Assembly: GCF_004010195.1 (NCBI RefSeq)
Contig: NC_057754.1
Location: 2,884,459-2,947,143 of the forward strand
Direction: 5' to 3'
Source: Chiloscyllium plagiosum
Taxonomy: Eukaryota
DNA: 62,685 nt
A program made the position numbers and the translations under genes. Positions 10,271-62,685 of the stretch are shown here, in pieces (position 1 is the stretch's first letter; every line of letters begins with the position of its first letter). Under the pieces are notes generated by a model. The model did not search any database. It was not told the DNA's origin and was given only the letters and a program-made list of their open reading frames with translations.

Positions 10271-10580
10271 TGGCATGGTGGCTCAGTGGTTAGCACTGCA
10301 GCCTAGGGACACTGGTTCGATTCCACCCTGGGGCCACTGCCTGCGTGATGTTTGTACATTCTTCTAGTGACTGTACGGGTTTCCTCCAGGTGCTCCGGTT
10401 TCTTCCAACAGTCCAAAGACGTGCTGGTTATGTAGACTGCTTACAGTGTTGAGGCTAGGTGGATTAGCTATGGGAAATGCAGGATTACAGGGATGGGGTA
10501 GGTAGTGCATCTGGGTGAGATGCTCTTCATGGTCTCGATGGGCTGCTTGGCCTGCTTCCACACTGTTGGGATACTATGAT
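10271..10580 (+). mobile_element. HE1-type V-SINE (degenerate)
   Basis: tRNA-like head TGGCTCAGTGGTTAGCAC...GGTTCGATTCC, V-core GGGTTTCCTCCAGGTGCTCCGGTTTC and LINE-like tail. Confidence 0.85.
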
Positions 10581-13082: not shown

Positions 13083-13611
13083 CTGAGGTGGGGGAATGGA
13101 AACAGTCAGTGGTTCCCAAAGTTGGGAATTACTAACACGTACTTACACTTACAGCAAAACCCTCCACGCAACCGCCTCCAAACCCCTATCTTCTTCATTC
13201 CTGCCCATGGCCCTATCCTTGTAGTCATTTCTCGCTATTCAGATTTCCCCTTAAACATATTGACACAATTCACCTCAACCATTCCCTGTAAGAGCATCTT
13301 CCACATTCTCTCCACACATTTCTTCTGAATTCTCAATCTGAGTGCTCAGTTCTAAGATGGAGTTATTCTTCAATAATTAACTATCTAGATTTGAATGAGC
13401 AAATGGGGAACTAAATTATATCCCATTTGATTACAGTTAGTTTTGAAAGCACCTTCTTTAGAAGGAACAGTGCAGATTATAAGACAGATGACATGTTTAT
13501 GATTGGCAATGGCTTAGGTTAACAGAAACACAGGAACAAGAAAAACACTTCCACTCAAGGACACCACTCACTTTAAAATGGTTTACTTCTTTAACAAAAA
13601 GCAGCATACTG

Positions 13612-14182
13612 GTTATGGTGGATTGACCATGCTAAATTGTCCCATAGTGTCCAGGGATGTGCAGGTTAGGATGGATTGGCCATGCTAAATTGCCCCATAG
13701 TGCCCAGGGATGTGCGGGTTAGGGTGGATTGGCCGTGCTAAATTCTCATAATGCCCAGGGATGTGCAGGTTAGGGTGGATTGGCCGTGCTAAGTTGTCGC
13801 ATAGTGCCCAGGGATGTACAGGTTAGGGTGGATTGGCCGTGCTAAATTGTCCCATAGTGTCCAGGGATGTGCAGGTTAGGGCGGATTGGCCGTGCTAAAT
13901 TGTCGCATAGTGCCCAGGGATATGCAGGTGGATTGGCCGTGCTATATTGTCCCACAGTGTTCAGGGATGTGCAGGTTAGGGTGGGTTGGCCGTGGGAAAT
14001 TGTCCCATAGTGCCCAGGAATGTCCAGGTTAGGGTGGATTGACCGTGCTAAATTGCCCATAGTGTTCAGGGATGTGTAGATTGGATGTATTAGCCTGGGA
14101 TAAACAGGGGCTGAGTCTGGGTGGGTTACTCTTCAGAGGATCGATGTGGACTTGTGCCTGTTTCCACTCTGTAGGGAGTCTA
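13612..14182 (+). repeat. 53 bp tandem array derived from the HE1 SINE body, ending in the SINE 3' part
   Basis: GCTAAATTGTCCCATAGTGTCCAGGGATGTGCAGGTTAGGGTGGATTGGCCGT about 9 times. The same sequence occurs inside the SINE copies elsewhere in the window. Confidence 0.92.
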
Positions 14183-17287: not shown

Positions 17288-17357
17288 TGGCACATCCACA
17301 ACACTGCGACCCAATGTGTCAGACGTGTTGATGGACTGATGTCAGTTAAACTCAGAT

Positions 17358-17681
17358 ATGGTGGCTCAGTGGTTAGCACTGCTGCCTCACAGCGTCAGGG
17401 ACCCAGGTTCAATTTCAGCTTCGGGTAACCATGGGGAGTTTGCACATTCTCCCCGTGTCTGCGTGGGTTTCCTCCTACAATCCAAAGATGTGCAGGTTAG
17501 GTGAAGTGGCCATGTTAAATTGCCCATAATGTTTTTGGATGTGTAGGCTAGGTGCATTAGTCAGGGGAAATGTAGAGTAATAGGGCAAGGGAGTGGGTCT
17601 GGGTGGGATACTCTTCAGAGGGTCAGTGTGGACCTGTTGGGCCAAATGGCCTGTTTCCACAATGTAAGGATTCTATTCTAT
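17358..17681 (+). mobile_element. HE1-type V-SINE
   Basis: A/B box head, V-core GGAGTTTGCACATTCTCCCCGTGTCTGCGTGGGTTTCC, tail ggcctgtttccac...ttctattcta. Confidence 0.9.
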
Positions 17682-24535: not shown

Positions 24536-24862
24536 TGGCATGGTACGGTGGGTCAGTAGTTAGCACTTCTGCCTCACAGGGCCAGACAGGTTCGATTCTA
24601 CCCTTGAGTGACTGTCTGTGTGGAGTTTGTACATTCTCCTATGTTTGCCTGGGTTTCCTTCGGGTGCTCTGATTTCCTCCCACAATTCAAAAATGTGCAG
24701 GTTAATTGCTGATGGTGTCCAGGGATGTGCAGGCTGGGAGAATTAGCCATGGGAAATGCAGGGTTGCAAGGATATGGTAGTGGTGTGGGTCTGCTTTTGG
24801 GACAGTTAGTGTGGACTTGAAGGACCAAATGGCCTGTTTCCACACTGCAGGGACTCTATGAG
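24536..24862 (+). mobile_element. HE1-type V-SINE
   Basis: tRNA-like head, V-core and the tail ggcctgtttccacactg. Confidence 0.88.
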
Positions 24863-25710: not shown

Positions 25711-27281
25711 CTAAGAAAAAAGGTCATGTTTATACATTTATCCATTGCCTTTCAAATCTCTGAACATTTGAAAGCATTAAGAGACTCCAAGATAAAAGCC
25801 AAGCTCAGCACTGACTCAGAATAGTCAGGAGTAATATGGCTGATTGGGACTAAAACTGCAAAACTGAGTACTGTCTAGTGTGAATCTATGATATACAGAA
25901 ACAGTTCCTAGTCTGTGCAGCATTAATAATCTCAGTTGAGCTGGCAGAACTAGCTATCATTATTATCACTGCCCCAACCTATACCTTTTTATTATTTGTT
26001 CATGGGATGTGGGCATTGCTGACTCAGCTAGCATTTGGTGCCCACCCCTTACTGCCCCTGAGAAAAGCGGTGCATGTTGTCTTCTTGAAGCACTGCAGTC
26101 TCTGAGTTGTCAGGGCATCCACAGTGATGTTAGGAAAGGAGTTCTAGAATTTGACTTTGTGACTGTAAAGGAATTGCAATATAGTCCCAAGTCAGCATGA
26201 TGTATGGCTTGAAGGGGAACTTGCAGCTGGCAGTATTCCCATGTATCTGTTGCCCTTTCTACGTAGTAGAATTCATGGGACTGCAAGGTGGTGTTTGGTA
26301 CTGTTGGTGAGTTGCAGTATTTGAAACACACTCGTGCCACTGTGAACTCTATTAAATGATTCCAGCTGAAATATGGAGGTATTTCTGGACATTAGTTGAG
26401 GATAGAATTGTGGCTTGGTTGTGATGCTGAACAACTTGCCAACACTCATGGACTTAAGTCTTGTTCAACTAGATGAAGTATTACAGACAGCCATTGAAAT
26501 CTGCACCTAATCAGGAGTCAGAGTGTGCAGAAAACCCAAAGAACTGCAGATGCTGAAAAGCAGAAGCGCAAATAAATTGTGGAAAGTAGAATTAGCAGGT
26601 CTCGCTGCATCTGTAGCGAGAAAGCAGAATTAACATTTCAGGTCCAGCGACCCTAAAGAAACCAAGTATTCGTTATCTCATAATGTTGTAGCTTTTGTCA
26701 AGAGCAGAGGAAAATTGATACATAATATCAATTATGGCCCAAAACTGACTAATAGGTTCCAAAGTTCCCTAATTGAGTGACCTCAACTGGCTTTTAATTC
26801 ACAACAATTAAACTTTGCAGTTTTGAATGGACCCAGCTATTGTAGTAAAATAACATATTTCATAATACATAGTTCAACTGTTTTCTCTGTTGGGGTTGGG
26901 AAGGACAGGATGCTTTTGAAAATATTACATGGCATTGTAACCTCTCCTTCCCAACCACCCAGTCCAGTTGTACACACCAGGTGGTAAAGACAGTACCAGC
27001 ATTAATTTAGTGTACATAAATTGGTAATCCTGTGACAGGTACCATACTCTTACATGATTAAAATGACACCTAGAATGTGCCATTACCACATCAAAATGTT
27101 CCCCCTTGACCCTCACCCACCCACCCACCCCCACCCAATGTGAGAACTCTCTGCACGTACAACTTACTGTACAGCTTTATAATTAATACAAGGTTTCTCT
27201 CGATTATCTTACTTACCTGTGCAAAGGGGTAATTGAAAGGCAGGAGATGCTGTACATTAAAGTTTTGTTTAATTTTTGATC

Positions 27282-27610
27282 ACGGTGGCTCAATGGTTAT
27301 CACTGCTGCCTCACTGCAACTGGGTTCAATTTCAGTCTCAGGAGACTGTCAGTGTGGAGTTTGCATGTTCTCTTTTTGTCTGCGTGGGTTTCCTCCGGGT
27401 GCTCTGGTTTCCTCCCACAATCCAAAGGTGTGCAGATTAGGTGAATTGGCCATGCTAAATTGCCCATAATGTTCAGGGATGTGCATTAGTTAGGGGTAAA
27501 TGTAGAGTAATTGGGTAGGGAAAATGGGTCTGGGTAGGTTACTCTTTGAAGGGTTTGTGTGGACTTGTTGGGCCAAATAGCCTGTTTCCACACCGTAGGG
27601 ATTTTATAGA
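27282..27610 (+). mobile_element. HE1-type V-SINE
   Basis: Same head, core and tail as the other copies. Confidence 0.88.
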
Positions 27611-33860: not shown

Positions 33861-36800
33861 CGTTTTTTTTTATTATTTATTCCCAGTATGAGGGTGCCGT
33901 TGACTAGGCCAGCATTTATTGCTCATTCCTATTTTCCTAGAAGGCAATTGAGTTAACCAAATTGCTGTTGGTTTGGAGTCACATATAGGCCAGACCAGGT
34001 AAGCTTGGCAGTTTCCTTTCCTAAAGGACATTAGTGAACCAGATGAGCTTTTCCAAACAATTGATTTGTAGTCATCATTAGCCAGATATTTGTTGAGCTC
34101 ACACTTCACCATCTGCAATGGCAGAATTCAAACCGGGGTCCCCAGAGCATTACTTGAGTCGCTAGATTAACAGTCCAGCAATAATACCACCAGGCCATCG
34201 GCCGCTCCTTATAACTGTAATATAATTGTAGTAAGACACCCCTACATGTGAACTCCAATCCTCTTGCAATGAAAGGCTATCATACCATTTGCCTTTATAC
34301 AAGACTGATTTTTACTCACTCGAAATAGGTTGTGAGGTCACCTGACTAAGTGTGCTTTCTTGCCACTGTCAGTCAGCTGGATGGCTGGAATGATCAGTTC
34401 TGCACCTGCTGAGGTTCCCCTGCAGGACTTTCCACTTAAAACTCTCCCTTCAATGGTAACCCTCAGGTTAAACCCATCATATCTCTCTCTCTCTCTCTTT
34501 AACCATTTACTTTTACCATACTGGTCCTCCATTTTGAGTTACACAAGACTAATATATAGAAACTGGTCCAACAGTCCAGTGCAAATCTGAGATAGTGCTG
34601 CATAGACAGGAATGCTGTCTTTCAGATGAGGTGTTGAGCACTTGTTCAGATGAAAGAAAAAAAACTTAAGATACTACTTGAAGAGCAGGATATTTCCACA
34701 GGACTCTTCATAAACATTTCTCCCTCAATGAACAATGCCAAAAACATTAACTGGTTACTCACCTCCACAGGAATTGAGCTGTCTGTATTTGTCTGCTGAC
34801 AGAACAACACTTCTGATGGTTGGTTGTGAAGTGTTTTGAGATGCCACAAAGAGTGTGATTAAATGCTATATCAGCACAGGCTCTGTCTTTATTGCATACG
34901 GTTTGCTTGCCCAGCCTTGTAAGTATCCCATCTGCTATGGTAGGATTTCAATCTGTCTGTCCTAGGACTACAAACCCACCCCAAATCACATTCCTACATG
35001 GTGACAGAAGCCTGAGAGCGCATTAGTCATGTATCAGCAACAATAGACTATCTCATACAGCATTAAAGCTGAAGCAGTTGTAAAGCACTTGAGTTTCTTC
35101 CACCACAAGACATGGCCAAACGCTGTTCTCTGTCGACTCTGGTACAACAGGACTCAGCATGTTCCGCAATCATAATCTGTATACAGTATGACTGAGGGGT
35201 ATTGAAGCACAGTGAACATAAATATTGGGAAGGATAAGATACTGAAGTTTTCTCTTACACTGAGGTGGGGAGTGGAAATCAGCCAGGTTTCCATGCCTGC
35301 TTATTGATCCAGCGACTCAATTTGAAAAGTGATTCAGTGTGGATGCCAGGAATTGACATGAAAAGCAGAATTATCATGCTGTTCAATATATAGATGGAGA
35401 CGAATGGCCACCCCAAGAGTGGGGAGGGAAGGCAGAGAAAAAAAAATCCAAAGGAACAATAAGACTTTACAGGAAATATTATAGAATTGGGACTTGGTTA
35501 CCTTTGATTGATATAATACAGCATTATTTGTGTAAGATGGGTGTGAACTGACAACGGCACCACTATACACATAGGAAGCAGTCAGTTCCTGAAACACAGG
35601 CTACTCAAACAAAAATGTCTTTGACTGATTAAAGGTAAGCAGAACAGGAATGTAGAGACAGACCTGCGTCAACAGGGGGTGCAAAGCAGAACTAGTTAAA
35701 CAGCAACAATGAGTGAAATCACAAACAATGGCATGGACTTCAGGATATTCTGGTTAAAAGTGAGCAGGTCCAATCACTTCTTCCCATAGATAACTACGCT
35801 TTCTGCACCGAAGGGCCCTAGGTTTGAAGCATTGCACTTCTTTGATGTGCTGATTTGGGAATAGTTGGGGTAATGCTCCTGATACTTACTTAAGCTGATG
35901 GCCTCTGGAAAATGCAAGGGTATGGACGTCAGGTTAGATGGCATTTTGTGATTCCCCTACCCTCCTCCTTTTACTCAGTGCTGAGGTTGGGAGGGGTATG
36001 CAATCTGTCTCTTCCAAGCTCATCCAGTAAAATGGAAAACTCGTGAAAACCTCAAAACCAAGACACTTAAACTCAAAGCTTCTCAGACGAACATTTTCAA
36101 CCAGAAAATATTATTATGATGTTTATACAGATAGTAAAGGACTAATTTTCAAACTGGGGTTGGGAATTAAATACCAAGATAAATTCCAGATCCCAAACCC
36201 ATATCTTAGCTGCTGTTTTTGAATGCACACTTAATTGGCAGGAAGTGAGCTTGGCACCCATTTAGAGGCAAGAGTGTGGTGCTGGAAAAGCACAGCCAGT
36301 CAGGCAGCACCCGAGGAGCAGGAAAATCAAAGTTTTGAGTCCTCACTTTCACCCATTTAGAGGCGTTAAGCACTTCCAAGAGGTGTGTTGGGGTAGCCAC
36401 TACCTTACTGGGTAAATCCCTCAAAAGGCTAGGCGTGATGCAATGCAGAACATGTCCACAGATGCCAAGTTAGAGTGCATTGCTCACTCAGGCTCCAGTT
36501 GGTCTATCAAATGTAATTTTAATCACAATAACAAATAAACTTTCTAATAGTAATATGCACCAGGTAGTTTAGATTTGCCAGAAGAAAACATGGAGATTTA
36601 TACAGTGGACTTGCCCCCTTAACATAACGTTAAAAAACAATGGAGCATGTTAACTGGCCCCAAGAGGATTTCTGGTTCACTCTGATAGATTTCATGCACC
36701 CACACAGTCTCCAATGCCACGAATTTGAAATCAAACCCATAACGAATCATTACCCCACAGCCACTTGAAAATCGGATCCAAAATGTGTGACTTTGATATG

Positions 36801-39202
36801 GGGGCTGAATGAAACCTATACATCCTTGTCCAGTTATCCCGGGCTTTCAAACCTGCAGGACCTAAATACTATACATTGTTTTGACTCCTTGATTTGCTTT
36901 TAACTTTGAAATCAATAGAGGGGACGATGAGCATAACAATCTGCTCATCATCATCAATAGCCTTTTGATCACATTTGAGAACTAAAATCAGCCACATGGC
37001 ATCGAATGATAAACTAAACTGTAATTCCACTAAAATGGACAGAATGAATTCTTTTTGAAAATGACTTTGTCTTTATTTGCTAACTTGCTTTCAAACATGC
37101 TCTTTGCAAAGAACATGATTTTATGTTCTTTTGCCCCTTCATGCAAAGTCTTCCTTTGCAGGTGAGTCTGGGCAGCCTATTCCATCACACAGGTAGCCCA
37201 GTCCCCTCCGTACATTTTGCAACAGGAAATATTGAAGAACAATAGTGTACCCACATGCAGCCTGGTTGACTTTCTGTCTCTCCCTAACTGACTTAAGTCA
37301 GGCCATTACCCCACCCCGCCTGAGAGCAGCGTTCAAATCTGGGTTCTCAGCATTAAAACATGTCTAAGGTCCTTATTTGTTTAAAAGGAGTGAACATCAA
37401 ACCCTCAGTTGACAAAATGTAGACCTGCCCAGGCCTGCACAGTTAGTATGAGACATGGATCAGTTTGCAGGTTTAATCTTTTGTTGTTGTTGCCTATATT
37501 GCAACACACCCAGTGCTTTGTTCACACCTGTACTGTCTGCGGGAAACTCTAAGAGTTTTTCAAGCAGGATTTATCACTAGGACTGAAGCACTTAAGTATT
37601 CCAAGACCTCAACGTAAAATATTGATTGCATAAACATGATGGTGATTTAAAATCTGTACAGGGTGCAGACTTAAGTATGCAAGGCAATCCCTCAAAATTT
37701 CATCCAAGTGTCCATTCCATAAATATGTGTGTGTTGCTACCAATGTTTGGCTGTGAATTTGGTTTACCCACTCAGGCTATCAGACAATCTCACCAGTAAA
37801 ACTGTGGCAATTGCGTCAAGGTCTCATTATGAGACATTATCTTTTTCCTCTGATTGTTTAATAACTGGCAGTATAGATCTTTAAAGAATTTACTGCAAAC
37901 GGCACAAAGATTGTTTTATTACACAATGGTGTAACTGTAGATAGTCCTTGCAATGATTTAGACATGTTAACCTTTAGGTTTCAACATAATTTACACTGAG
38001 TACCTCAGCAAGGGCTGTCACAGCTGTGATTGTCAACCAGCAGCACATTCCAACATGCACTTTCTAACAGATCATATCTACCCTAAGACTCCAACATTGC
38101 TGTCAGAATGTGAGATGCTCTTTAGTAGTCCTCTTGCATTTGTAACTCATAAAGTTGTCCACGCTTCCCTCAACTTGCAACCCTCTGTCACTTGTCCAAA
38201 GACCCAAATGGACTCTTCTACATTCCTTTCGTTTTGCACACATGCTGTATTAAAATTAAGCTTCATTGTCCTGCTATCAGTTCTAAAACCACATTTTGAG
38301 ATTGTCAGAATTGGGGAACATCTGATGTTATCCATCCAGCCATTCAGCTAAAAAAAAGATAGTCTCAGGGTCCATCAGCATCAACACTGACAAACATCAG
38401 GGGTCTCTACTGCTTGGATTGGTAAAGCCAGAATTTATTGCCCATCCCTTGAGACAGTGATAGTGAGCTACCTCTTTGAACCACTGTAGTCCATTTGCTG
38501 TAGGTAGACCACAATATACTTCTGAGTCCAGATAGTGAGTGGCTTGGAGGGGAACTTGCAGGTGGTGGTGTTCCTATGTGCCTGTTGCCCTTGTCGTTCT
38601 AAATGGAAGTGGTCTTGGGTTTGAAAAATGGGACTTTGGTGATTTTCCATAGTGCATCTTGTAGATGGCATCCTGCTGCTGCTGAGCATTGGTGGTGGAG
38701 GGAATGGATGTTTGTGGAGATGTATCCATGTGAGAAGATGTGAGCTCAACCAATCAGACTCATACATCAGTAATCACAACTTGGGCACAGGGATAGGAAA
38801 CAGGCAGGAAGGCTAAAACTATAGCCCAGCAAGGATTCAGTACCTTCGCAGAACAAACAAGATGGTTCCAGAAATGACTCTTATTCCGCCAACAATCTAC
38901 TGGACCTTCAAACCAAAGCTTGGCATCTCCTGATTGCTATGTCTTGATCTATTTTATGCTGCAAGGCCCTTCGTCTTTCAACAGAGTTTCTCCCTTCTAA
39001 ACCTACTGTTCCTTCTCTGCAGATTTCAACCCTTACTGACCAGCTTCACATTGCCCTTAGTAGGCATGACAAAGCAAAAGAATATCAACTGGCTGCTTTG
39101 TTACCGAGTATCACAAATTAGCACGATCTTGGCTTCGCCTAATGACCCCACCCAACAAACATGCATATTCCTCAATGTAGCTCAATACTATACAGTATCA
39201 TG

Positions 39203-39493
39203 TGTGGCTCAGTGATTAGCACTGCTGCCTCACGGGACCTGGGTTCGATTCCTGCCTGTCTGTGTGGAGTTTGCACATTCTCCCCGTGTCTGCGTGGGTT
39301 TCCTCCGGGTGCCCCGATTTCCTCCCACAATTCAAAGATGTGCAGGTCAGGTCAATTGGCCATGTTAAATTGCCCACAGTGTTAGGTGCATTAGTCAGGA
39401 GTGGGTCTGGGCGGGTTTCTTTTCGGAGGGTCAGTGTGGACTTGTTGGGCCGAAGGGCCTGCTTCCACACTGTAGAGAATCTAATCTAATCTA
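39203..39493 (+). mobile_element. HE1-type V-SINE
   Basis: Head, V-core and an (AATCT)n tail. Confidence 0.9.
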
Positions 39494-39836
39494 AAGATTA
39501 CTTATGTTTCTGCTCACTCACAACATGACCGAATGGGTCATATCCATCAGAAATTCCCTTCTCTCTGCTCATCTTTATTAGATTGGAATTTCTTTTCCAC
39601 CGATGCCTGCAAAGGACAGTAGTCAACAGAAATGGTAACACTCACAATAAAAAAATTGAAGTATCCACGACATTATTAAAACTGCCTACAACGGCCTCCC
39701 ATCTCTGCCCTACTTCAACTTATGTGCTGCAGGCTCTCACCCATGCTTTCTGACTATTCCAGACAGGGTAGTTGCACCACCATCACCGCCCCCCCCTCCA
39801 TCTTCCACCCTCCTTAAAATTAAGCTCACCCAAATC

Positions 39837-40293
39837 TTAGGGTGTAGGTTTGCTCGCTGAGCTGTAGGTTTGATATCCAGACGTTTCATTACCTGGCTAG
39901 GTAACATCATCAGTGGCGACCTCCAAGTGAAGCGAAGCTGTTGTCTACTGCTTTCTATTTATATGTTTGTCCTGGATGGGGTTCCTGGGGTTTGTGGTGA
40001 TGTCATTTCCTGTTCTTTTTCTGAGGGGTTAATAGATGGTATCTAGATCTATGTGTTTGTTTATGGCGTTGTGGTTGGAGTGCCAGGCCTCTAGGAATTC
40101 TCTGGCATGTCTTTGCTTAGCCTGTCCCTATAAATAGAAAGCAGGTGACAACAGCTTCGCTTCACTTGGAGGTCGCCACTGGTGATGTTACCTAGCCAGG
40201 TAATGAAACGTCTGGATATCAAACCTACAGCTCAGCGAGCAAACCTACACCCTAAACCTCAACCTGAGCTACAAACCTTCACAAACCTTGCAA
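39837..40293. mobile_element. Fold-back Penelope-like element with two inverted hammerhead motifs
   Basis: Near-perfect inverted arms (about 39838-39963 vs 40128-40255). The left part is the reverse complement of the PLE 3' end at 48350-48636. Hammerheads at 39877-39916 (-) and 40176-40215 (+). Confidence 0.9.
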
Positions 40294-40767: not shown

Positions 40768-41088
40768 GGGCGGCACGGTGGCACAGTGGTTAGCACTGCT
40801 GCCTCACAGCGCCAGAGACCCGGGTTCAATTCCCGACTCAGGCGACTGACTGTGTGGAGTTTGCACGTTCTCCCCGTGTCTGCGTGGGTTTCCTCCGGGT
40901 GCTCCGGTTTCCTCCCACAGTCCAAAGATGTGCAGGTCAGGTGAATTGGCCATGCTAAATTGCCCGTAGTGTTAGGTAAAGGGGTAAATGTAGGGGAATG
41001 GGTGGGTTGCGCTTCGGCGGGTCGGTGTGGACTTGTTGGGCCGAAGGGCCTGTTTCCACACTGTAAGTAATCTAATCTAATCTAATCT
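40768..41088 (+). mobile_element. Young, near-intact HE1-type V-SINE inserted into a HER1 LINE tail
   Basis: GGGCGGCACGGTGGCACAGTGGTTAGC...GGGTTCAATTCCC, CpGs retained, (TAATC)n tail. The flanks rejoin as gtacatc|tctatgactct. Confidence 0.93.
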
Positions 41089-46400: not shown

Positions 46401-48139
46401 GCAATTAGCTAAATGCCATTAAGAAAAGTTAATTTGCATTTGCTTTCTGCTGCACTTTCGTTGTGAAGGCATCCATTCTTGCAAAGCCCTTGTCCTCTCG
46501 GCTGTTTGCGAGCACTTGATCACAGTTTGTATGGCCAGTCGCTGTTTGTGAGAGCTTACTGTGTGCAAATTGGCTGCTGCGTTTCTTACATTACAGAAGT
46601 GCCTGCGCTTCAAAAGAACCTTGTTGTATTTTTGGGTCCTTCTGGGATCATGAAAAGTGCTGCAGAAATGGATCAGATTCTAGGTTAGTCAGCTCCTGGC
46701 TCTTTGATCTTGGTCTCCGTAAGTCCAAAATACAACTATGCTCTACAGTAAAGAACCAGGTTAAGCTCACCTCAGCTCAGTCAGCACCGACGCTGTATAG
46801 GAACAGTATCCTCGCCCTCCTGCTCACAACAGTTACAACTCTTGAAAAGTGAGGACTTGGATAGTGTGGGGCAAATGAGGCTAGATATTTGCCCAATAAC
46901 CATCCTCTCCCCTGCCTATTCATGCCGCTTGCAATACTTCATTCACAGCTTAGCTTCACACCTAAGGAAGGCTCTTAGGTGAGGTACAACATGGTGGTCA
47001 TAACTCCTAGAATACAACGCGAGATAGGCATAAACACACCTTCAGTGCTGTGAAAGCCAGTTGAAGACAGGCGTGGAAAGGCGCAATAAGAAAGTGCAGA
47101 AAATATATTGCTCATGCAAATATTTGTCAGTAGATAGGGACTAAATTGGGTTTGGATATCTGGTCGGCATGGATGGGTTGGACCGAAGGGTCTGTTTCCA
47201 TGCTGTACATCTCTAAGACTCTGTGGTCTACAGATTAGCAAGTTACGCTTTTTCTCTGAAAGACTGGACTCTTTGCCAAAACCTAAAGTAGCAACAGCCA
47301 AAATTATGCATTGTATTCCCATGTAGCTTTTCAATAGCCCTATTGCATTACATCAAATTCCAACCAGAGACGGTAACGGGAAAGAAATAAGCCAATGTTT
47401 CTACTCCAGTGAACCCCTGACTAAAAACTATGTTGTGATTTCAGGCAAGGACTAGAATTGAGATGTCACCCTTCCATGTTGGTGGATCGGACACCCTAAC
47501 ACATATTGCCCAAGTTCATCCATGAGGTATAACCACTTATGAGAGGTACTGGAGAGATCGCCACACATTGAAAGAGTCAATGCCTTCAGAAGAGATGAAG
47601 GAAATGATGGGCAAAAAGGACAAGGGCAGGAATTTAACTGGAACAAGATCACCTCCAAGCTACATACCACTCTGATTTAGCCATAAATGACTGTTCCCTC
47701 ATGTGACTTGGCTTTCCAAGCTGGATTTCCCTCCAAATGCCATATTGGTGAAATACTTTCCCAACCATCTCAAAGTGTCTTGCCATAACCTATGGTCAAA
47801 TAATCCTTCAAAACACTGAATGTAGCCCACTCCAAAGTGATGTGCAGTATTCAAGCCATCTTCTGCACTGCAACCAAACAGCAAAACGTTCATGCATCGG
47901 TCCCCAGGACAATCTCAAAAAACTTCCCAGGTAACTGGCTGAAGGGCAAAATGTCAAGAGCAGGTCATTCACTTCCTCAGTTAGAGGACTTATGCATAAG
48001 TTAAAAAGAGAATCACCCCTTCACAGTGTCTCAGAGGCTTCACCCAGTGTGAGGCTTTCCAGACCAGGAAAGATTTTGAGAGTTTCCCCAAATACTCCCT
48101 GGGGCCAGCAATCAGATGCAAGGAATGGCCACAAAACTG

Positions 48140-48636
48140 TCAACGAGAACAAATCCATGGACAAAACCAACGTCGTCTACAAAATTCCGTGCAAGGACTG
48201 CCACAAACACTACGTAGGACAAACAGGAAGAAAGTTAGCCACCAGGATACACGAACACCAGCTAGCCACAAAAAGACACGACCCTCTCTCCCTCGTAGCC
48301 CTACACATGGAGGAAATAAACTACCATTTCGACTGGGACAACACATCTATCCTGGGACAGGCTAAGCAAAGACATGCCAGAGAATTCCTGGCACTCCAAC
48401 CACAACGCCATAAACAAACACATAGATCTAGATGCCATCTATCAACCCCTCAGAAAACGAACAGGAAATGACATCACCACAAACCCCAGGAACCCCATCC
48501 AGGACAAACATATAAATAGAAAGCAGGAGACAGCAACTTCGTTTCACTTGGAGGTCGCCACTGATGATGTTACCTAGCCAGGCAATGAAACGTCTGGATA
48601 TCAAACCTACAGCTCAGTGAGCAAAGCTACACCCTA
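48140..48636 (+). mobile_element. Penelope-like retroelement 3' end: GIY-YIG endonuclease fragment plus hammerhead
   Basis: NVVYKIPCKDCHKHYVGQTGRKLATRIHEHQLATKRHDPLSLVALH (GIY-YIG with CxxC), frameshifted near 48390. Hammerhead at 48558-48597. Confidence 0.92.
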
Positions 48637-49664
48637 GAGAAATGAGCTAGACAAATCCAGCTAGGGTGCTGCTCCCATTCTGTATAGGGTCACCTCTATT
48701 CTGTAGGTCTCGATCTTAACTGAGGCCAAGATTGCAAAGTCCCAGCCTGCTGTTCTGCTCATATTACAGCTCCCCTTCTGAGCCAAATAAGGACCCTGTA
48801 TATAATGTATCTCAAATGCACTGCAACACTGCCCTCTACTTTCCCACACTTGTGCTTACTTAAAAACATTAAATCCATAGTCCCAGCCCCCTGCAAGCAG
48901 GAAATCCTAAATTATCTGTGAGTTAACAGTACTCCAGGAATAGCATTAACTGACGGGCTGTGTCTTTGTTGAGATACTAGATGCAGCATCTGGTCTTTTC
49001 AGAGTTACTTAATCTTTCTTGTGACATGTAGATATTGTTCCAGTTTCATTCACTAACACCAACCCCACTTCAGTCCTGATTCCTGGTCTGGTGGAGGACG
49101 TACCCGCACGTCATACTCAATGGGCTACACTTGATGGTTTGCCAGATTAGGCCACCATGGGAGACATAACAACTGAAATAAATTTTGTTTACATCTCATA
49201 TTCACTTTCTATCAGACAGTTATCAGGAGCAAGAGCATTCCTCACTTCTACTACTCGTCATTAGCTGGCCCTCTCATTCTCTGCTAACAGCCAGCCCCAG
49301 TGGACTAGCCCGAGCACAAAGCAGGAATCGAATCTTCATGCACAGCTGTAACGCATAGCACAGGTTCTCAAACTGGGCCCTCTGCAGCTCAATGGAGTGT
49401 GCAAACGGGTTAAATGGGCTGTGAATATTTGAACGAGGTGCCTAGTGAAGAATATGGTTTTCAGACAGTCTCTGGGTTAGTTTCAACATCAGAATGTCTT
49501 CCAAATAATGATGTCAGTATTTGTGGGAAGGAAGGTAGCCCTGGGAAGTTATCGTTTTTGCTGGGGGAATCTATGTCCTTGGACACTGCCAACATTTGCA
49601 GGATTTGGAGATGCCGTCCAATTACTCTCACTTCTCCCACTTGTTCCACATGATTCGGGGATGC

Positions 49665-51461: not shown

Positions 51462-51665
51462 GAGAAAGTGAGTACTACAGGTGCTGGAGATTAGGGTCAA
51501 GAGTGTGGTGCTGGAAAAGCACAGCAGGCCAGGCAGCATCCCAGGAGCAGGAAAATCGATGTTTCGAGCAAAAGCCCTTCATCAGGATTTATTCTGATGA
51601 CTTTCCTGCTCTGGGATGCTGCCTGACCTGCTGTGCTTTTCCAGCACCACACTCTTGACTCTAAT
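51462..51665. mobile_element. Fold-back PLE-derived element with minus-strand hammerhead
   Basis: Arms gtcaagagtgtggtgctggaaaagcacagcagg / cctgctgtgcttttccagcaccacactcttgac. Flanking duplication taatagcccatgga (51450-51463 and 51662-51675). Hammerhead at 51553-51590. Confidence 0.85.
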
Positions 51666-52920
51666 AGCCCATGGACTCTATTTATAGGGGCACACATTAA
51701 ACAGGTGCACCCATGGGATGAGTTCCCCCATTCTCATCAGGAATAGAGGGTCAGGGGAAAAAGTTCTGAAATTAACTTGATAGCAGTTAAAGCTCATATC
51801 AGCTGCAGTATCTGTGTGAGCTACTTTTAATAATATACAAGAGAACTCAAGAATGTGCTCAAGAATTCCAGTGAATATAAGGGAGTACCTGAAAGAAACC
51901 AAATCAAAATTAAACCCTAGACAAAAGTGAGTAGTGCCAGGTAGGATTTCAAGAGGTGGGGAATGCAGGAAGAAATGTTGGCAGCGAGGTCAAGGGTTGG
52001 CTGTCAGTGGAGCACTCCCCCAACCCACCGCTCCCTTGTTCCTGCCTGAAACATTGACTGTCCTGCTCCCCCGGATGCTGCCTGACCTGCTGTGCTTTTC
52101 CAGCACCACACTCTTGACTCTAATCTCCAGCACCTGCAGTCCTCACTGGGTTTTTTTCCCCAGTGCCGCACTCGATCTAAACTCTCGCATCTGCAGTCCT
52201 GACTATCTCCAATGTTGACAACAGGATAACAATCTGAAGTGATCATTAACGGGTCACTTAAGGGCCTCAATAATCAGCACATTGGGAAGATCAACAATGG
52301 GTCCACCTGAATTGAACTTAATTCTGATGGAGCCAAAATTCATACTACCTAATTAAAGGGTCTTCCCATTTCTTGGCATGCTATCAGAGGATTCCACCCA
52401 ACATTTTACATTAGATATGAAGATCAGAAGAAGTCATCTATGACCTGAAACATTATTTGTTTCTCTCTCCACAGTTGCTGCCAGACCTGCTGACTATTTT
52501 CAGCATCTTCTCATTACATTTGGTACCTCCTAATGGCCAAGCAAGCATGTGACCCTGAGTAAAATTGGCAAACTTGAGAACGCTGTTGAAGCAACTCTAC
52601 CAGTAGCATCCTTCACCTGGTTTATTTACTGCTCTCTATATCAAGAGACCATTATTTGACCTTGTTTACAGGTGAGTAAGCTGTTTGAAGTACTTTGTTA
52701 CATGACTAACATGGTGTGGCCTGCACTGATTCAGCAGATTTTATCAGGGGGAGCCTGTACAACTTTCGTCAACGCTTATAAATAGTTTCGACATTAGTTG
52801 ATGGGAAGGAACAATCAGGGTTTGTGGATGGGGAAGCAATGGACCAATACAAAATGGCTTGAAAGCACCACCATTTTGTGGAAAATCTGTAACTATAGCT
52901 TGCTCTTAATCTATCTTAAT

Positions 52921-53365: not shown

Positions 53366-55911
53366 TTAAAATTTAAAATTCTTAAATTGAACTACTCCCA
53401 CTTCAGGACAATATACATCTGATTTCCATCACTAGAACTTTAGAGAGATCTGTTTCACCACACTCCGTTAAGAATATAAACATTACCCCTGAAATAAATG
53501 CTGCACAAAACTCTTAGAGATACAAGTGATTCTGAGGCTGACTATTGCTGTAAGCTATCCTGCAAAATTCCTATTTGCTATTTTAACAGTAGTTGCTAAT
53601 GGGTTAAAATGCTGAATGGAAGCTTTGCTCGTGTATGTCAAACCAAAAGGTTAGAAGATATTAGTATCTGGAAATGTAACCACTCCGAAACACCCCCGGA
53701 GTTTAACAAACCCCGAAGGGTAGGCTCTCTTTCACCAAAACCTGGCAGTAAATATTTACAAATTGTTTCCCACGGTCAACACAGCAAATAGCCCCACGCA
53801 ATGTCCTTTCTTTAAAACAAAATTGCAACTTTTTAAAAAAATCAGTTGCTGTGCATTGTTAGTTGGTTCCCACATTCTCAGAGTTAAATTGACAGATTTT
53901 AAAATAGACAACATGGAACCTTTGTTTTATAATCTCAGTTTATTTTGTTAACTCATTTCCCACCGAAAATGTTGACACATTCCCAAACTATTCTCGCCAA
54001 TAAATCTCTCTCTGAAGCCAATACACTTTTTTGAAGTTTCTACAGAGCATCTCATCCTATTTTAGAGTTGTCTTAAAGTGCTTCTCGCTCAATCGATTAA
54101 CTATGAACAGTATTTTGCAAAAGACTAATATTGGCAAAAAGTGTTCTGCAATGCAGGGATATACGCTGGGGCATCTCACAGCAGTACAACTAAAAACTGA
54201 CAACTGAAAAAACAAGTGATATTAGATGTAGCAACTAAAAGATAAATGAGTACTTGATTTGTTGGTTGAGAGATGAATGCTAGCCCAGACATCAGGGCCT
54301 TTAAAAAGTGCCTCATGATTTTTAGTATCCAGTCAACAAGACTGGATAGTTTAAAATATTCTGAAAACAATGCCCGGAAAAGTACTTTTTCTCAGCAACG
54401 CCTTCTCTGTACAAGAAACACCATCTTTTCTATCATCATTTTTGACAACCTCATTTAAACAGATTTTTCACAGATAAGCTGGCTAAAGTGTGTTCTCATT
54501 CAACATTTCCACTCTTACAAGGCTGCTGTGCTAAAGTTGTTAGTAAAGGCTTTTCTTTTTACATCGATAGGTAAAAACCAATTTTTCTTGTGTAAATCAT
54601 ATCTTTGGTCAATGCATGTTTAGATGAAAATTGTCACGAGCAAAATTATTCAGCCTACGTTTAAAGTTGCCATCTTATCCAACGTATGTAATTTTTTCAG
54701 GTGCATATCTCATTGGTGTCTGTGCCTTAATGTTTCCCTGTATCTTCATCAGTCTTTGTCTGTTAGTGTCTCTGTGTTTCAAAGTTTACATGACTTCAAT
54801 AACTGTGTTGCACCATGACCACGTCTTATCTTAGTTTTTGAGTGCAGTGTCAGTATGGCATATCCACACTTTTCAGTATGTGACGAACTAGCTCTGTCTC
54901 AGTATGTACCCCTGCGCCTGTGATGCTCCTCGGTAAGCTGTATCTCAGTCTGCATTGCTTCATATCTGCCTGTTTCTAATTAACTTCACTGCCAGCTCGC
55001 ACTAAAAAATAATTGTACACCCTCAAGATCACTTTCTGAGGTTGGGAAAGCAGGCTAAAATAACATTGTATACTTATAAAAAGAGAGCACAAAGAATCAG
55101 GCCAGAACCTAAAACAGCAGAAACATTTCTCAAAGTTTCCTGGAATCAGTCTTGAACCTGGGAAGACTGCAAATACCAAAAACTTGGATACATTTGCTCG
55201 GTAGAGCATGCCTGCAGGGTTGTGTTTGGTCTCTGTGTTTGATCGCAGAAGTAAGAATTCAGCAACACACTGGCAAAAATGTGTGTGTGTGTAATTTGGC
55301 ATGCCATAGTTCTCAAGATATCTCCGGGTAAAAATTTTCATCTTCTTGGTAACCTTCTCCATTTTAATTTCCCGTGACCATAGTTGTAAAGGCAACTATC
55401 CCTGTAAACACATCACGCTGTTGTTACACCCCCTAGCCAATGGAGGTGCAGCAGTGCCATCACTGGCCGGAGGGTGGTATGGCAGCCTAACAAGTTTACA
55501 TAGGACAACCTACACTATTTTTTAATTTAGAGGTAGGGATTTATCATATATGAGGATTAGATGTACAGCTTTCAAATAGGGATTGAATTACAGTTGAGCA
55601 GCGCATTACTCCTCACTTACTTATTAAAACAGCAAGTGTTGGAGAAATTCAGCATGTCTGGCAGCATTCGGAGTGAGAAACAGAACCAAGTCCGGTATCA
55701 AACTTCTTCAGAACTGCAGTTTCAAAACATTTTTTTTAAACTCCAACAACCGCAGTATTTGCTTTTGTCTTATTACTTAAAAAATCTTTACTTTGTTTTA
55801 AGTTCCTGTATCCAATGCTGTTACAAACTGGTACACATTAAGGCTCTGATTACAGGGTTGTGGTCATTGAACTCACTCTAATCGTCGGTCAGGTTTGGCT
55901 TATTCAGGAAA

Positions 55912-56230
55912 GATTAGATTAGATTCCCTACAGTGTGGGGACAGGCCCTTCAGCCCAACCAGTCCACACCAACCCTCCAAAGAGTAACCCACCCAGACCC
56001 ATTTCCCTCTGACTAACGCACTAATGCTATGGGCAATTTAGCATGGCCAATTCACCCGACCTGCACATCTTTGGATTGTGTGAGGAAACTGGAACACCCG
56101 GAGGAAACCCACGCAGACATGGAGAGAATGTGCAAACTCCACACAGACAGCTGCCCGAGGTTGGAATCGAACGTGGGACCCTGGTGGTGTGAGGCAGCAG
56201 GGCTAACCACTGAGCCACCGTGCCGTCCCT
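55912..56230 (-). mobile_element. HE1-type V-SINE
   Basis: Full reverse-oriented copy. An internally deleted copy lies at 56768-56882 and a 3' half at about 40500-40648. Confidence 0.9.
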
Positions 56231-57164: not shown

Positions 57165-59650
57165 GGAGCTGCAACCATCGAAAGCGCAGCGTCCCCCCCA
57201 CCCCCCACCCCCCCAGAGTCTCCCCGGACGGATTTGCAGATCTGCCCGAAGGCATCTCGCCTTTGCAAGAGCCCGCACCTCCCTGTAAATCCCTGCTCCG
57301 ATTCATCTGGCCCGCCTCCTTGAGCAGCTAGGGGGAGGGAGGCTGGTTCTTCAAACTTTCAGAATAATCATTTAAAAAAAAACACACGAAATCCCACTCT
57401 CCCGCAGGCGTCCGACGTTTGAATTCAACATAAAAATCCTCGCCCACCCCTCTCCCAAACACCATCCTCCCACATCGCCTTTGTTTTGTAAATTGCAAAG
57501 TGATTTCGCTGAAAAGCTGCAAAAGGATTTTTTTATTGGCTCGTTTTTTAAAAGAAAAAGTGGGACCCCGATCGGATATGGGATACACCCTACTTCAGCG
57601 AGAGAGAAGAAACAGGCAGTCTGGGCACGATTAAACTCGGACGCAAAGTGACCCACCCTTCCAACCTTGGTCCAGTTTAACACATGTATCATCTGTCAAA
57701 CACTAGCGCTATAGGCAGGGCAGGGGTTGCTTTATTTTGTGTGTACGTGTCAATCCATTATCTGGGGCACAAAGGGGACGAATAAACTAACAAAAGGCGA
57801 TGTTAAAAAAATCACACCCAACGCCAGGTTACAGCCCAACAGGTTTATTTGCAAGCACTAGCTTTCGAGGCGCTGCCCCTTCACCAGAGCGGTGCTCTGA
57901 AAGCCGAGTGCTCCCAATTAAACCTGTTGGGGGGCTGTAACCTGGTGTCGGGAGAGTTTTAACTTTGCCCAGCCCAGGCATTCTCCAAATCCTGGCCATC
58001 TTTCTAAAACAAAAACCCTCCCTGATGAAGGGCTGATGCCCGAAACGTCGATTCTCTTGCTCCTGGGACCAGCCGTGGGGCTTTGCCCGTAACATACTCT
58101 CGAATTCTTAAAAAAACCTGGGCTGAACTCCGCCAAATGAGGCGCCTCTTTATTCTGGCGGTGCCCGCGTTGCACTGTAACGGGAATAGCAAAGCGGGGG
58201 CATGAGAGGCTTCCACTGTCGGACAGACTTCGGAACGCTATTGTCCACGATCATCCCCACCCCATCAGTCCAGTCGAGAGATTAGAGTGTGCGAGACAGG
58301 ACAGCAAACTTCAAATAATATTTGCATATGAGAGACTTGACAAAAGTCAATCTCACGGATCTAAACTTGCTTAAATAACCTCGCCACACCGAACTCTACA
58401 GTCTGCAAGTCACTCCCCCACCCCTCTCTCACTCTCTCGTTGCTTCATACACAAAGTTCTGGCAGTGATTACATTTTTTTCTCTCTCTCTCCCTCACTCA
58501 CTCTCCTCCTCCCACACCCACTCCCCTCAAAAGTCTGCTTTAAGTTACACTGTCTTTTCCAACCACAGTCATGAATTCCAAGCTTAGACTCTGGCTCGCT
58601 GCCCAGAGCTGGGGGGGGGGGGGGGGGGGGGTGGGGGTGGGAGGGAAAAAAAAGGCTTTGCTACACCCCTTCTCCACACCCATGTCAAACACGATTGCAG
58701 AAACTTCGTGCAAGAGATTTTTGTTTTAAAAAAACTTGCCAAGGGTTTATTTTTCCAGCTTCACTTGTAAAAACAGAGTAGAGACCCACTGGAACAAATC
58801 TCCACAACTTGCAATGTTTTTTTTTCTCTCTCTGGTGACACGTGTGAGTGGCGAAAACATTAGGGGGTAGGGGGGGAAAAAAAGGTACTGACGGGTAATC
58901 GGATTCCTGCAGATTCCCTGTCTCTGGGCTGCTCGATCTACAAAACTTTTGTCAGCTTGTTCAGCTTAATTTTAGTGTTAAGACAGCTCGCAAGCCCAGG
59001 GGCAGCTGAAAGAATCCACGCCCACGTCTACATAATCCAAAAAAACAGCAATCGTTTTCGCTTTGCAAACAAAAAAAGATTTCCCCCCCCCAAAAAAAAA
59101 TAAACTTTCAGAGAATTCCACCAACGCCAGGTCTGAATCGTTGCTGCCACTCGGTTAGACGCGCGCATTCATCTCAAAATTCCCAGTCGAAATCTTGCAG
59201 CAAGTTCCGAGCAATTAAACACATCTCTTGGAGATTTCAGTTTGATTTACCTGGCGGCAGCGATTTCTAGGCTAAAGCCCTAGCCGTCCCATCGTACCGG
59301 GGCACCCAGTGCTTGTGTGGAGTAGCCCGTTCGTCAACGCAGCACTTTTAAGTGGAGCACCAACCTCGAGATTCCCGATAATAACCCTCTACTGTTACAG
59401 GGTTGGGCTCTTGTACAGGATCGGGTGGGTCCTCGAGGGGCGGAGACTCGCTTCGGGATGGAGGATGGACCAAAATAAAAAGGGAGAGACAGAGAGAGAG
59501 CTGACATCAGGGATGTGTCCGCGGAGTCATGCGCCCGGGCGAACCCACCTCTCCCCAAAACAGTGCCACAAAAACAAAGCTGGCAGATCAGGGGCGCAGG
59601 GCAGTCCGCGGGAGGGTGGGTCACTCAGGTGGAGGGTCACAGCACAGTCT
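57165..59650. promoter_or_regulatory. CpG-rich region, candidate AHNAK promoter and first exon
   Basis: Visibly more CpGs than the flanks (cgcgcg, ccgcgg), G/C runs, a GC-box CCACGCCCA at 59016-59024 and a possible minus-strand donor gtcagt at 58887-58892. Assignment to AHNAK is inference. Confidence 0.45.
57803..58066. mobile_element. Adjacent PLE-derived elements with hammerhead motifs inside the CpG-rich region
   Basis: Fold-back 57803-57967 with minus-strand CTGGTGA-A-GGGGCAGCGCCTC-GAAAGCTA-GTG. Plus strand 58022-58054 reads CTGATGA-A-GGGC-TGAT-GCCC-GAAAC-GTC-GATTC. Confidence 0.75.
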
Positions 59651-60435
59651 GCATGTCTGACAGAGTGGAGGAACACAGGGCTGTCTGGTTATAACAATGT
59701 CAGGCAGAACAAGAGGGAGGCGAGACAGTCGGGTTATTATGGTGGCAGTGAGAGCATGGGACAGAAGCCAGGCTGGTCAGAAGAGTTTCACATAGTGGGA
59801 CAGATTGCTCTGGTTATGTGTTTGGCAGAACACCACATTACAGTCTGGTTAAAATGTCTCTGACAGAGCAGAGGGACACAGTACAGTCTGGTTATAACTG
59901 TCTCTGACAGACCAGAGGAACACAGAACAATCTGGTTATAATGTATCTGTCAGAGCAGACGAACACAGTACAGTCCGAGTACAATGTATCTGTCAGAGCA
60001 GAGGGACACAGTACAGTCTGGTTATAATGTGTCTGTCAGAGCAGAGGGACACAGTACAGCCTGGTTATAATGTGTCTGTCAGAGCAGAGGGACACAGTAC
60101 AGTCTGGTTATAATGTATCTGTCAAAGCCGAGGGACACAGTACAGTCTGGTTATAATGTGTCTGTCAAAGCCGAGGGACACAGTACAGTCAGGTTTTAAT
60201 GTATCTGTCAGAGCAGAGGGACACAGTACAGTCTGGTTATAATATATCTGACAGAGCAGAGGGACACAGTACAGTCTGGTTATAATGCATCTGTCAGAGC
60301 AGAGGGACACAGTACAGTCTGGTTATCATGTGCCAGTCAGAGCAGAGGGACACAGTACAGTCTGGTTATAATGTATCTGTCAAAGCAGAGGGACACAGTA
60401 CCGTCCGGTTATAATGTATCTGTCAGAGCAGAGGA
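59650..60435. repeat. 43 bp tandem satellite running into a gap
   Basis: GAGGGACACAGTACAGTCTGGTTATAATGTATCTGTCAGAGCA repeated, more degenerate to the left. Confidence 0.95.
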
Positions 60436-61010: not shown

Positions 61011-61178
61011 GTAAAAACAAGGACTGCAGATGCTGGAGACCAGAGTCTAGATCCGAGTGGTGCTGGAAAAGCACAGCAGGTCAGGCAGCATCCGAGGAGC
61101 AGGAAAATCGACGTTTCAGGCAAAAGCCCTTCATCAGGAATAGAGGCAGAGAGTCTGAAGGGTGGAGAGATAAGAATA
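61011..61178 (-). mobile_element. PLE 3' tail with hammerhead motif
   Basis: Minus strand ATTC-CTGATGA-A-GGGC-TTTT-GCCT-GAAAC-GTC-GATT at 61106-61141. Same family as 42285-42523. Confidence 0.82.
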
Positions 61179-61202
61179 GATCATATCATATAGATCATGT
61201 CC

Positions 61203-62685
61203 AGAGTCAGGGTCAGGGACAGGGTCACAGTCAGGGTCAGAGTCAGGGACAGGGTCAGAGTCAGGGTCAGGGTCAGGAACAGGGTCAGAGTCAAGGTCAG
61301 AGTCAGGGACAGGGTCAGGGTCACAGTCAGGGTCAGAGTCAGGGACAGGGTCAGGGACAGGGTCAGGGTCACAGTCAGGGTCAGAGTCAAGGTCAGAGTC
61401 AGGGACAGGGTCAGGGACAGGGTCAGGGTCAGAGTCATGGTCAGAGTCAGGGTCACAGTCAGGGACAGGGTCAGAGTCAGGGTCAGAGTCAGGGACAGGG
61501 ACAGGGACAGGGACAGGGTCAGGATTAGGGACAGGGTTAGGGTCAGGGACAGGGTCAGAGTTAGGGTCAGAGTCAGGGGCAGAGTCAGGGACAGGGTTAG
61601 GGTAAGGGTCAGGGACAGGGTCAGGTATAGGGACAGGGTCAGGGTTAGGGACAGGGTCAGAGTCAGGTACAGGGTCAGTGTTAGGGACAGGGTCAGAGTC
61701 AGGTACAGGGTCAGTGTTAGGGACAGGGTCAGAGTCAGAGTCAGGGTCAGAATCAGGCTCAGCGTCAGGGACAGGGTCAGAGTCAGGGACAAGTTCAGGG
61801 ACAGGGTTAGGGTCAGGGACAGGGTCAGGGTTAGGGACAGGGTCAGGATTGGGGACAGGGTCAGAGTCAGGGACAGGGTCAGCGTCAGGGTCAGAGTCAG
61901 GGACAGGGTCAGAGTCAGAGTCAGGGACAGGGTCAGGGTTAGGGACAGGGTCAGGGTTAGGAGCAGAGTCAGGGTCAGAGGCAGAGTCAGGGACAGGGTT
62001 AGGATCAGGGTTAGGGACAGGGTCAGGGTCAGGGTCAGAGTCAGGGTCAGAGGCAGAGTCAGGGACAGGGTCAGGGTTAGGGACAGGGTCAGGGTTGGGA
62101 CAGGGTCAGGGTTAGGGACAGGGTTAGGGACAGGATCAGGATTAGGGACAGGATCAGAGTCAGAGTCAGGGTCAGGGTTAGGGACAGCGTCAGGGACAGG
62201 GTCAGGGTTAGGGACAGTGTCAAGGTCAATGTCAGGGTCAGGGTTAGGGACAGGGATAGGGTTAGGGACAGGCTCAGGGTTGGGACAGGGTCAGGGACAG
62301 GGTTAGGGACAGGATCAGGATTAGGGACAGGATCAGAGTCAGAGTCAGGGTCAGGGTTAGGGACAGCGTCAGGGACAGGGTCAGGGTTAGGGACAGTGTC
62401 AGGGTCAATGTCAGGGTCAGGGTTAGGGACAGGGATAGGGTTAGGGACAGAATCAGGATGAGGGACAGGATCAGAGTCAGAGTCAGGGTCAGGGTTAGGG
62501 ACAGGGTCAGGGTTAGGGACAGGGATAGCGTTAGGGACAGGGTCAGGGACAGGGTCAGGGTTAGGGACAGGGATAGGGTTAGGGACAGGGATAGGGTCAG
62601 GGGAGGGACAGGGGTCAGAGTCAGGGTCAGGGTTAGGGACAGCGTCAGGGACAGGGTCAGGGTTAGGGACAGGGTCAGGGTTAGG
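61203..62685 (+). repeat. Telomere-variant hexamer tract (TCAGGG/ACAGGG/TTAGGG/TCAGAG)
   Basis: About 1.5 kb of NNAGGG-type hexamers reaching the window end, with TTAGGG more frequent toward the right. Confidence 0.93.

Follow-up and report, generated by a model that had tools for sequence, protein, structure and literature searches.

Does a short hammerhead-like motif, lying downstream of a GIY-YIG endonuclease fragment in the genome of Chiloscyllium plagiosum, still act as a ribozyme, and from which retroelement does it come? The question was raised by a sequence-only reading of a 62,685-nucleotide stretch of contig NC_057754.1 (termed the window), which described positions 48140–48636 as a Penelope fragment with a minimal hammerhead of intact core and held that this copy tied the many other hammerhead motifs of the window to one shark family. 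The locus is very probably a dead, 5′-truncated Penelope/Poseidon insertion of a carpet shark (Orectolobiformes), made up of the endonuclease end, a terminal repeat with a minimal hammerhead, and a short tail. Its anatomy, family membership, high copy number and private mutations were observed directly.

A truncated insertion of a high-copy family

The region 48060–48720 was compared with public runs, namely contigs of three organisms and one RNA run (four runs). Family depth was confined to 48155–48636 (482 bases), which was covered by 10,432, 8,049 and 1,411 contigs from the three organisms, values that represent depth and not copy number, and by 299 of 12.96 million RNA reads. The shark Penelope family is very high-copy. 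Read depth and loose read ends placed the start of the insertion at 48155 and not at 48140, while the end originally given, 48636, was retained. The reads ran past 48636 into a longer tail, which is also present in the window from 40255 onward, and they continued upstream of 48155 into the element ORF, indicating that this copy (copy 1) is a 5′-truncated insertion. The features of the family in the window are as follows.

48155–48636, forward strand: 3′ end of a 5′-truncated Penelope/Poseidon-type retroelement (copy 1)
48160–48577, forward strand: remnant of the C-terminal GIY-YIG endonuclease, frameshifted by an 8-nt deletion at 48386
48558–48597, forward strand: minimal type I hammerhead motif with intact core, predicted cut 3′ of C48594 (C17)
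48567–48569, forward strand: AUG made up of A9, unpaired U48568 and G10.1, putative start codon of the element ORF
48583, forward strand: copy-specific C in stem II (U in the family), with one pair lost and a rival hairpin, 48578–83/48592–97, promoted
48598–48636, forward strand: short tail of copy 1, ending within the AC-rich loop of the family tail hairpin
39838–40128, reverse strand: copy 2 of the family, 93.8% over 291 nt
40129–40292 (right end approximate), forward strand: copy 3, an inverted terminal repeat abutting copy 2, with a long tail

The Pfam GIY-YIG match to the remnant was weak (E 0.0028; 18.4 bits, below the cut-off of 22.6), but the fragment is real, since 22 of 28 candidate protein relatives matched it, the best with an E of 6e-37 and 81% identity. 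Carpet sharks accounted for 12 of the 22 (Stegostoma, Chiloscyllium, Hemiscyllium and Rhincodon; 69–86%, plus one short 100% piece), the other 10 being four liver flukes (58–60%), one ant, one record labelled as a fish-gut bacterium and four unnamed sequences. The nearest protein record, P0009, was 92% identical to the copy 1 fragment over 52 amino acids. In copy 1 the frame is broken at 48386 and ends at the stop codon 48575–48577, inside hammerhead loop II, and the last His of the CCHH motif of the C-terminal GIY-YIG domain is a Tyr. Reverse transcriptase is absent from truncated copy 1 and lies upstream in the same ORF of its nearest relatives (RVT_1), and a Neptune-type CX2-5CxxC zinc finger was found in none of the seven linkers that could be delimited in nine reverse transcriptase–endonuclease relatives. 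Because reverse transcriptase precedes the endonuclease without a linker zinc finger, the element would belong to the Penelope/Poseidon clade by the criteria given in the accessible text of 10.1101/2021.04.23.441226, an assignment that rests on domain traits and not on a tree with Repbase references.

Three shark isoforms (P0003, P0015 and P0021, of MAP3K7, CUEDC2 and one uncharacterised gene) were seen to end in Penelope endonuclease sequence, which suggests that the element may supply alternative last exons to these genes. RNA reads ended in A runs at 48274, 48307 and 48320 (13, 13 and 12 reads), and such ends in the endonuclease region are internal oligo-dT priming or poly(A) sites. Penelope fragments 49–55% like the shark proteins were also present in bacterium-labelled records (L081, positions 74–448, and protein P0016), most likely because animal DNA had entered those assemblies.

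Copies 2 and 3 lie back to back at 39838–40292, forming an inverted repeat that carries a tail at one of its ends, and an inverted terminal repeat with an optional tail is given as the typical Penelope arrangement in the accessible text of 10.1101/2021.04.23.441226. The hammerhead of copy 2 (39916–39877) has an intact core and a fully paired stem II, and that of copy 3 (40176–40215) carries the core change A6 to G. The AC-rich stem-loop in the tail of copy 3 (40229–40270) gave a z of −3.43, with one of 200 shuffles as good. The copies nearest to copy 1 are 8.3 kb away, and no tandem match was present at copy 1, nor a tandem full element anywhere in the window. At best a weak, imperfect match was found for a target-site duplication of copy 1. 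In its short tail the start frame meets, at codon 18, a stop that is specific to this copy, and two of the 40 variants listed, out of 167, fell within the hammerhead motif. The parent element would have had copies in partial tandem, and its reverse transcription would have started in the AC-rich tail hairpin, which would give rise to both the short and the long 3′ ends.

The hammerhead motif, its covariation and a second family

The earlier reading of the letters at 48558–48597, with their stems, core, GAAA, ACGU and GUC, was correct base for base. With positions numbered after PMC4209133, stem I of copy 1 is formed by 48558–60 paired with 48595–97, and the core CUGAUGA occupies 48561–67, followed by an unpaired U (48568) between positions 9 and 10.1. 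Stem II comprises 48569–75 and 48580–86, with A48572 facing C48583, and GAAA lies at 48587–90, the palindromic ACGU (15.2–16.2) at 48590–93 and C17 at 48594; loop III is absent. The family motif as such contains the core CUGANGA, GAAA, NUH and stems I and II, of which stem II is fully paired in the family and not in copy 1. A G10.1-C11.1 pair is absent and is replaced by G.U in all three window copies of the family.

The motif was compared with more distant sequences. An exact 22-base motif was found in no metagenome contig; related loci were kept in 80 of 203 cases in metagenomes (25–53% on the best segment), all of them distant, with one in prokaryote genomes and none among 31 candidates in viral contigs. 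The distant Penelope elements L001–L003, L013, L015 and L048 were observed to carry a hammerhead that likewise pairs CCA with UGG in stem I and whose long stem II is self-complementary. The motif of a sister family was decoded by intersecting two Chiloscyllium protein records in different frames, with one conflict in 69 positions, so that its stems derive from protein records of different copies and were not read from DNA. In this decoded motif the third pair of stem I is G-C and not C-G, the 10.1–11.1 pair is G10.1-C11.1, and in stem II the G of the third pair faces C or G. The Clonorchis motif 1 hammerhead, as listed in the accessible part of PMC4209133, has 31 of 40 positions in common with copy 1 (hand count), and the four positions at which their stems differ make up two compensatory pairs, namely the third pair of each stem. 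Covariation in the stems was found, then, as two both-sided changes against Clonorchis motif 1 and against the decoded sister family, in few sequences.

Could the hammerhead appearance of 48558–48597 be a chance resemblance? The search with Rfam covariance models, one of the checks proposed for the motif, gave 14 matches at E up to 10, none of them a hammerhead, and the folding energy of the copy 1 monomer was ordinary, being no better than that of shuffles (z −0.78). Against chance, the strict core pattern was enriched, with six occurrences in the window and 0.49 expected (SD 0.67; largest 2 in 100 shuffles), and 20 similar motifs were present in 81 loci of distant relatives. Chance resemblance was ruled out by the position of the motif, which sits where it is expected, in a terminal repeat, together with the covariation of its stems, and its probability is considered negligible. 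Anatomy, protein matches and published traits bear out a minimal type I hammerhead of a Penelope-like element in the terminal repeat of a shark family.

The strict-pattern motifs comprise two of the shark Penelope family, three of a second family and one unrelated to either. The wider claim, that copy 1 ties the many motifs of the window to its own family, did not survive, because only three motifs belong to that family (cores at 48561, forward; 39913, reverse; 40179, forward) and six belong to a second, unrelated repeat family.

208, 9349, 42396 and 58022, forward strand, and 51585 and 61137, reverse strand: core-bearing motifs of a second hammerhead-headed repeat family, ~ 130 bases
7934–8093, 9269–9328, 36275–36335, 51604–51651 and 52043–52147: partial copies of the second family

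Motifs of the second family have a four-pair stem II closed by G-C, and several copies lie back to back as hairpins. The two families have no sequence likeness (best blastn match 9 nt, E 0.35), and a tblastn search with 12 Penelope proteins, by which a Neptune-type ORF could be missed, matched only the two loci of the shark Penelope family in the window.

Other contents of the window were recorded alongside. A long repetitive ORF resembling AHNAK lies at 20678–23347 on the reverse strand (a lead only, although the atlas score was fairly high) and runs into an assembly gap; the Penelope copies are upstream of this ORF, and copy 1 is antisense to it. A non-LTR retrotransposon remnant at 7060–8848 on the forward strand (endonuclease and RVT_1 matches) is interrupted at 7934–8093 by a palindromic pair of the second family. 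A SINE-like dispersed repeat of ~ 320 bases is present in seven copies (10265–10579, 17357–17680, 24540–24861, 27281–27607, 39199–39494, 40768–41085 and 55909–56228), and tandem arrays occupy 1388–2873, 13607–14100, 59632–60434 and 61137–62685, the last being a long low-complexity hexamer-type repeat at the end of the window.

A single-base change in stem II of copy 1

The A.C mismatch noted earlier in stem II is present in copy 1, but it is private to this copy and not a family trait. At position 48583, U accounted for 99.6%, 99.8% and 88.6% of the contig depth in the three organisms; 51 of 53 RNA reads also had U there, as did copies 2 and 3. In fold predictions the U-to-C change weakened stem II from −6.2 to −1.5 kcal/mol and made the rival hairpin, which covers the cut site, more stable (−2.7 kcal/mol with U, −7.7 kcal/mol with C). 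The predicted probability of stem II was ~ 0.04 in copy 1, compared with 0.87–1.0 per pair in copy 2, and that of the rival hairpin in copy 1 was 0.94; the contrast between the two copies also held in a 117-base context. Cofolding of two molecules gave a double-hammerhead energy of −4.1 kcal/mol for copy 1 and −13.5 kcal/mol for copy 2, and even in copy 2 the stem II arms preferentially formed one extended duplex (−27.3) rather than the double hammerhead. This preference agrees with the weak dimer activity and the need for protein described in the accessible parts of PMC4209133 and, for the PAc ribozyme, PMC11167929, respectively.

The description of the hammerhead as intact holds for the core. 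Copy 1 is not a good intact example, because stem II is predicted to be lost through the private change at 48583, leaving the cut site sequestered; one of the three window copies keeps both core and stems, and this is copy 2, not the copy that had been flagged. Folding models suggest that copy 1 is probably misfolded by its own mutation and likely inactive, the U-to-C change locking the cut site in the rival hairpin. With the cut site so locked and a tandem partner absent, copy 1 most likely does nothing. Copies 1 and 2 make up a natural single-base folding switch, and this pair, together with the overlap of start and stop codons described below, offers a test of the role of Penelope hammerheads.

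A further difference was observed at 48591 (C15.2), where A was present in 11 of 56 RNA reads (11 starts) compared with ~ 0.1% of DNA contig depth. This is probably one well-transcribed copy with a broken palindrome and not editing.

Evidence for cleavage

To fold, a hammerhead without a stem III of its own would need either a dimer partner, joined through the ACGU palindrome, or the element protein. One interpretation of the locus is that copy 1 is a working dimer-type ribozyme that cuts transcripts running through it, and the intact core, GAAA, ACGU and GUC, together with the presence of the family in RNA reads at ~ 3 to 1 in the direction indicating sense RNA, are consistent with it. However, the private stem II change is predicted to misfold the copy, which has no tandem partner within 8.3 kb, and read starts and ends showed no pile at the cut site at ~ 55-fold depth, in a fragmented poly(A) single-cell library that is ill suited to the purpose. 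In addition, according to the accessible part of PMC4209133, minimal monomers did not cleave and dimers did so weakly, and the PAc ribozyme needed the element protein (PMC11167929, in its accessible part). A working copy 1 is regarded as very unlikely, and the locus is best read as the dead insertion described above.

A stop codon and a putative start codon within the hammerhead

The AUG at 48567–48569 was identified as the putative start of the element ORF by way of copy 3, whose tail frame aligned with the N terminus of the reverse transcriptase-bearing P0036 from Met19 (16 of 36 identical, E 0.005, a short and weak match); its match to the very beginning of P0142, an intact protein of 832 residues, was weaker still (E 0.38). 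The stop codon in loop II also ends four of the six annotated shark proteins that reach this loop. The 40-nt hammerhead would hold both the stop of one unit and the start of the next, the latter 8 nt earlier and in another frame, and a stop placed 8 bases past the start of the next unit suggests that translation of tandem units may be coupled. The cut after C17 falls within codon 10 of the putative ORF.

An overlap of hammerhead and start codon is already known, since it was reported for the PAc hammerhead in the accessible part of PMC11167929, and it is not general, since none of 16 distant motifs opens a frame of more than 31 codons. The idea that the hammerhead AUG serves as ORF start in all Penelope elements was rejected on that count; two upstream motifs lie ~ 200 bases before their ORFs.

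The conservation of the motif is not creditable to RNA structure alone, because the motif is also coding. It could be that in the shark lineage it has been kept mainly as a protein-binding or translation signal (the overlapping stop and start, and the first ten codons), with cleavage incidental. This would accord with the presence of both codons inside the motif and, from the accessible part of PMC11167929, with the normal insertion in vitro of PAc ribozyme mutants and the lack of read ends at the cut site in PAc, as here. However, compensatory stem changes alter amino acids yet keep the pairing, the same core is found in the distant elements whose AUG opens no such ORF, and, in the same source, cleavage was lost and restored in PAc core mutants in the manner expected of a hammerhead. 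Retention mainly as such a signal is considered unlikely. For a motif that does act as a ribozyme, cleavage would most likely trim or switch off the element RNA, because a cut in codon 10 parts the AUG from its ORF; that this is its role, rather than a need for cleavage in insertion, is given about an even chance.

Affinity with flatworm elements

The best 120 of 610 matches to a shark reverse transcriptase–endonuclease query comprised 11 named carpet-shark, 83 tapeworm and five trematode sequences, one from a soft coral and one from an unresolved eukaryote, the other 19 being unnamed proteins. Neither these nor the 22 endonuclease matches included a named vertebrate apart from carpet sharks. 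Leaving carpet sharks aside, the named sequences closest to the element come, unexpectedly, from parasitic flatworms; a separate search added two bony-fish elements, three echinoderm elements and one coral element. A tree of annotated proteins was built with IQ-TREE (LG+G4, no mixture model) from 58 of 60 chosen rows, two being too short. The copy 1 fragment is itself too short for trees and was represented by P0009, and the whale shark label of row P0129 is an assumption. The eight shark rows formed one clade (99/91) inside a clade (99/94) with seven trematode and 12 unnamed rows; the soft coral was sister to this shark–trematode clade, with tapeworm elements around it. Sharks and trematodes were likewise together in a 179-row FastTree. 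Mean identity of the shark rows was 52.6% to trematodes, 45.1% to tapeworms and 34.5% to bony fish (two elements), and that between trematodes and tapeworms was 45.3%. Sharks and bony fish as one clade were rejected (p 2e-84), which alone shows only that these are different old lineages. With the 35 named rows the sharks lay within a flatworm-dominated clade (100/99).

One explanation is vertical descent from an old animal Penelope lineage, lost or unannotated in other vertebrates, the flatworm affinity then being an effect of sampling. The trees contain annotated proteins only, with two bony-fish elements, and transposon proteins are abundant in helminth annotations; the shark–trematode clade takes in 12 unnamed sequences, with a soft-coral element beside it; and with the named rows alone support for sharks with trematodes is reduced to 82/70 and the data are compatible with monophyletic trematodes (p 0.48), all of which fits vertical descent. 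However, sharks are closer to trematodes than trematodes are to cestodes or sharks to bony fish, other vertebrates are missing from the names among the 22 matches and the best 120 of 610, a single flatworm clade that excludes sharks is weakly rejected (p 0.022, tested after the tree was seen), and the Clonorchis and shark hammerheads agree at the 31 positions counted above. Vertical descent is plausible, though rather doubtful.

Horizontal transfer of some kind is the explanation towards which these comparisons lean for the shark Penelope clade. That it went from a parasitic flatworm to carpet sharks may be proposed only tentatively, at a little below an even chance. The fuller proposal, in which a parasitic-flatworm element entered the carpet-shark ancestor with a hammerhead overlapping stop and start, so that one 40-base element would couple translation of tandem units to self-cleavage, is put forward with comparable reserve, as a reading that may well prove wrong. 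No report of a flatworm–shark Penelope transfer was found in the literature searched, which covered neither most subscription papers nor Repbase, where shark Penelope families may be described. The carpet-shark clade is among the most abundant repeats of carpet-shark genomes. If true, the transfer would mean that a retroelement with a ribozyme had passed from parasite to vertebrate and gone on to reshape the recipient genome.

Comparison with known systems

The locus is a decayed copy of a known ribozyme class in a known retroelement, and as such is of little consequence. As in the minimal hammerheads of PMC4209133 (here and below, as described in the accessible parts of the papers), the motif has a short stem I, a long stem II and an unpaired base between 9 and 10.1, loop III is absent and 15.2–16.2 is palindromic, and its place is the 3′ repeat of a truncated element, near a second, inverted copy. 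The Clonorchis sinensis motif 1 of that paper (listed as Cercyon, partial) matches the shark motif in the lengths of stems and loops and likewise closes with a G.U pair. Unlike the G10.1-C11.1 of the published consensus, the shark motif has G.U, and copy 1 is decayed; G.U at 10.1–11.1 is also listed for Clonorchis, cichlid, coelacanth and Xenopus motifs. Sharks are absent from the alignment and table of the accessible part.

The likeness to PAc, an element of the Poseidon type from Anolis carolinensis (PMC11167929), is one of described architecture. In both the ORF starts at the foot of stem II, the 3′ ends carry an AC-rich tail hairpin and there are two 3′ ends; the distance from AUG to cut is 26 bases in PAc and 28 here. 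The AC-rich tail loop in which the short shark 3′ ends fall matches the reverse-transcription start of PAc, although the short end lies ~ 70 bases past the AUG here and initiation at 111–118 in PAc. The PAc ribozyme was assayed and was protein-assisted, whereas the shark element is known from sequence.

Elements of the Penelope/Poseidon clade in 10.1101/2021.04.23.441226 likewise have reverse transcriptase followed by a C-terminal GIY-YIG with the CCHH motif, a hammerhead in the repeat, and an inverted repeat with a tail; sharks are unmentioned in its accessible text. One chondrichthyan was sampled for non-LTR retrozymes (10.64898/2026.07.22.740005), which may bear on novelty in sharks. The retrozymes described there also carry a type I hammerhead derived from a Penelope repeat, but they are non-coding tandem arrays, whereas copy 1 is a single insertion with endonuclease sequence.
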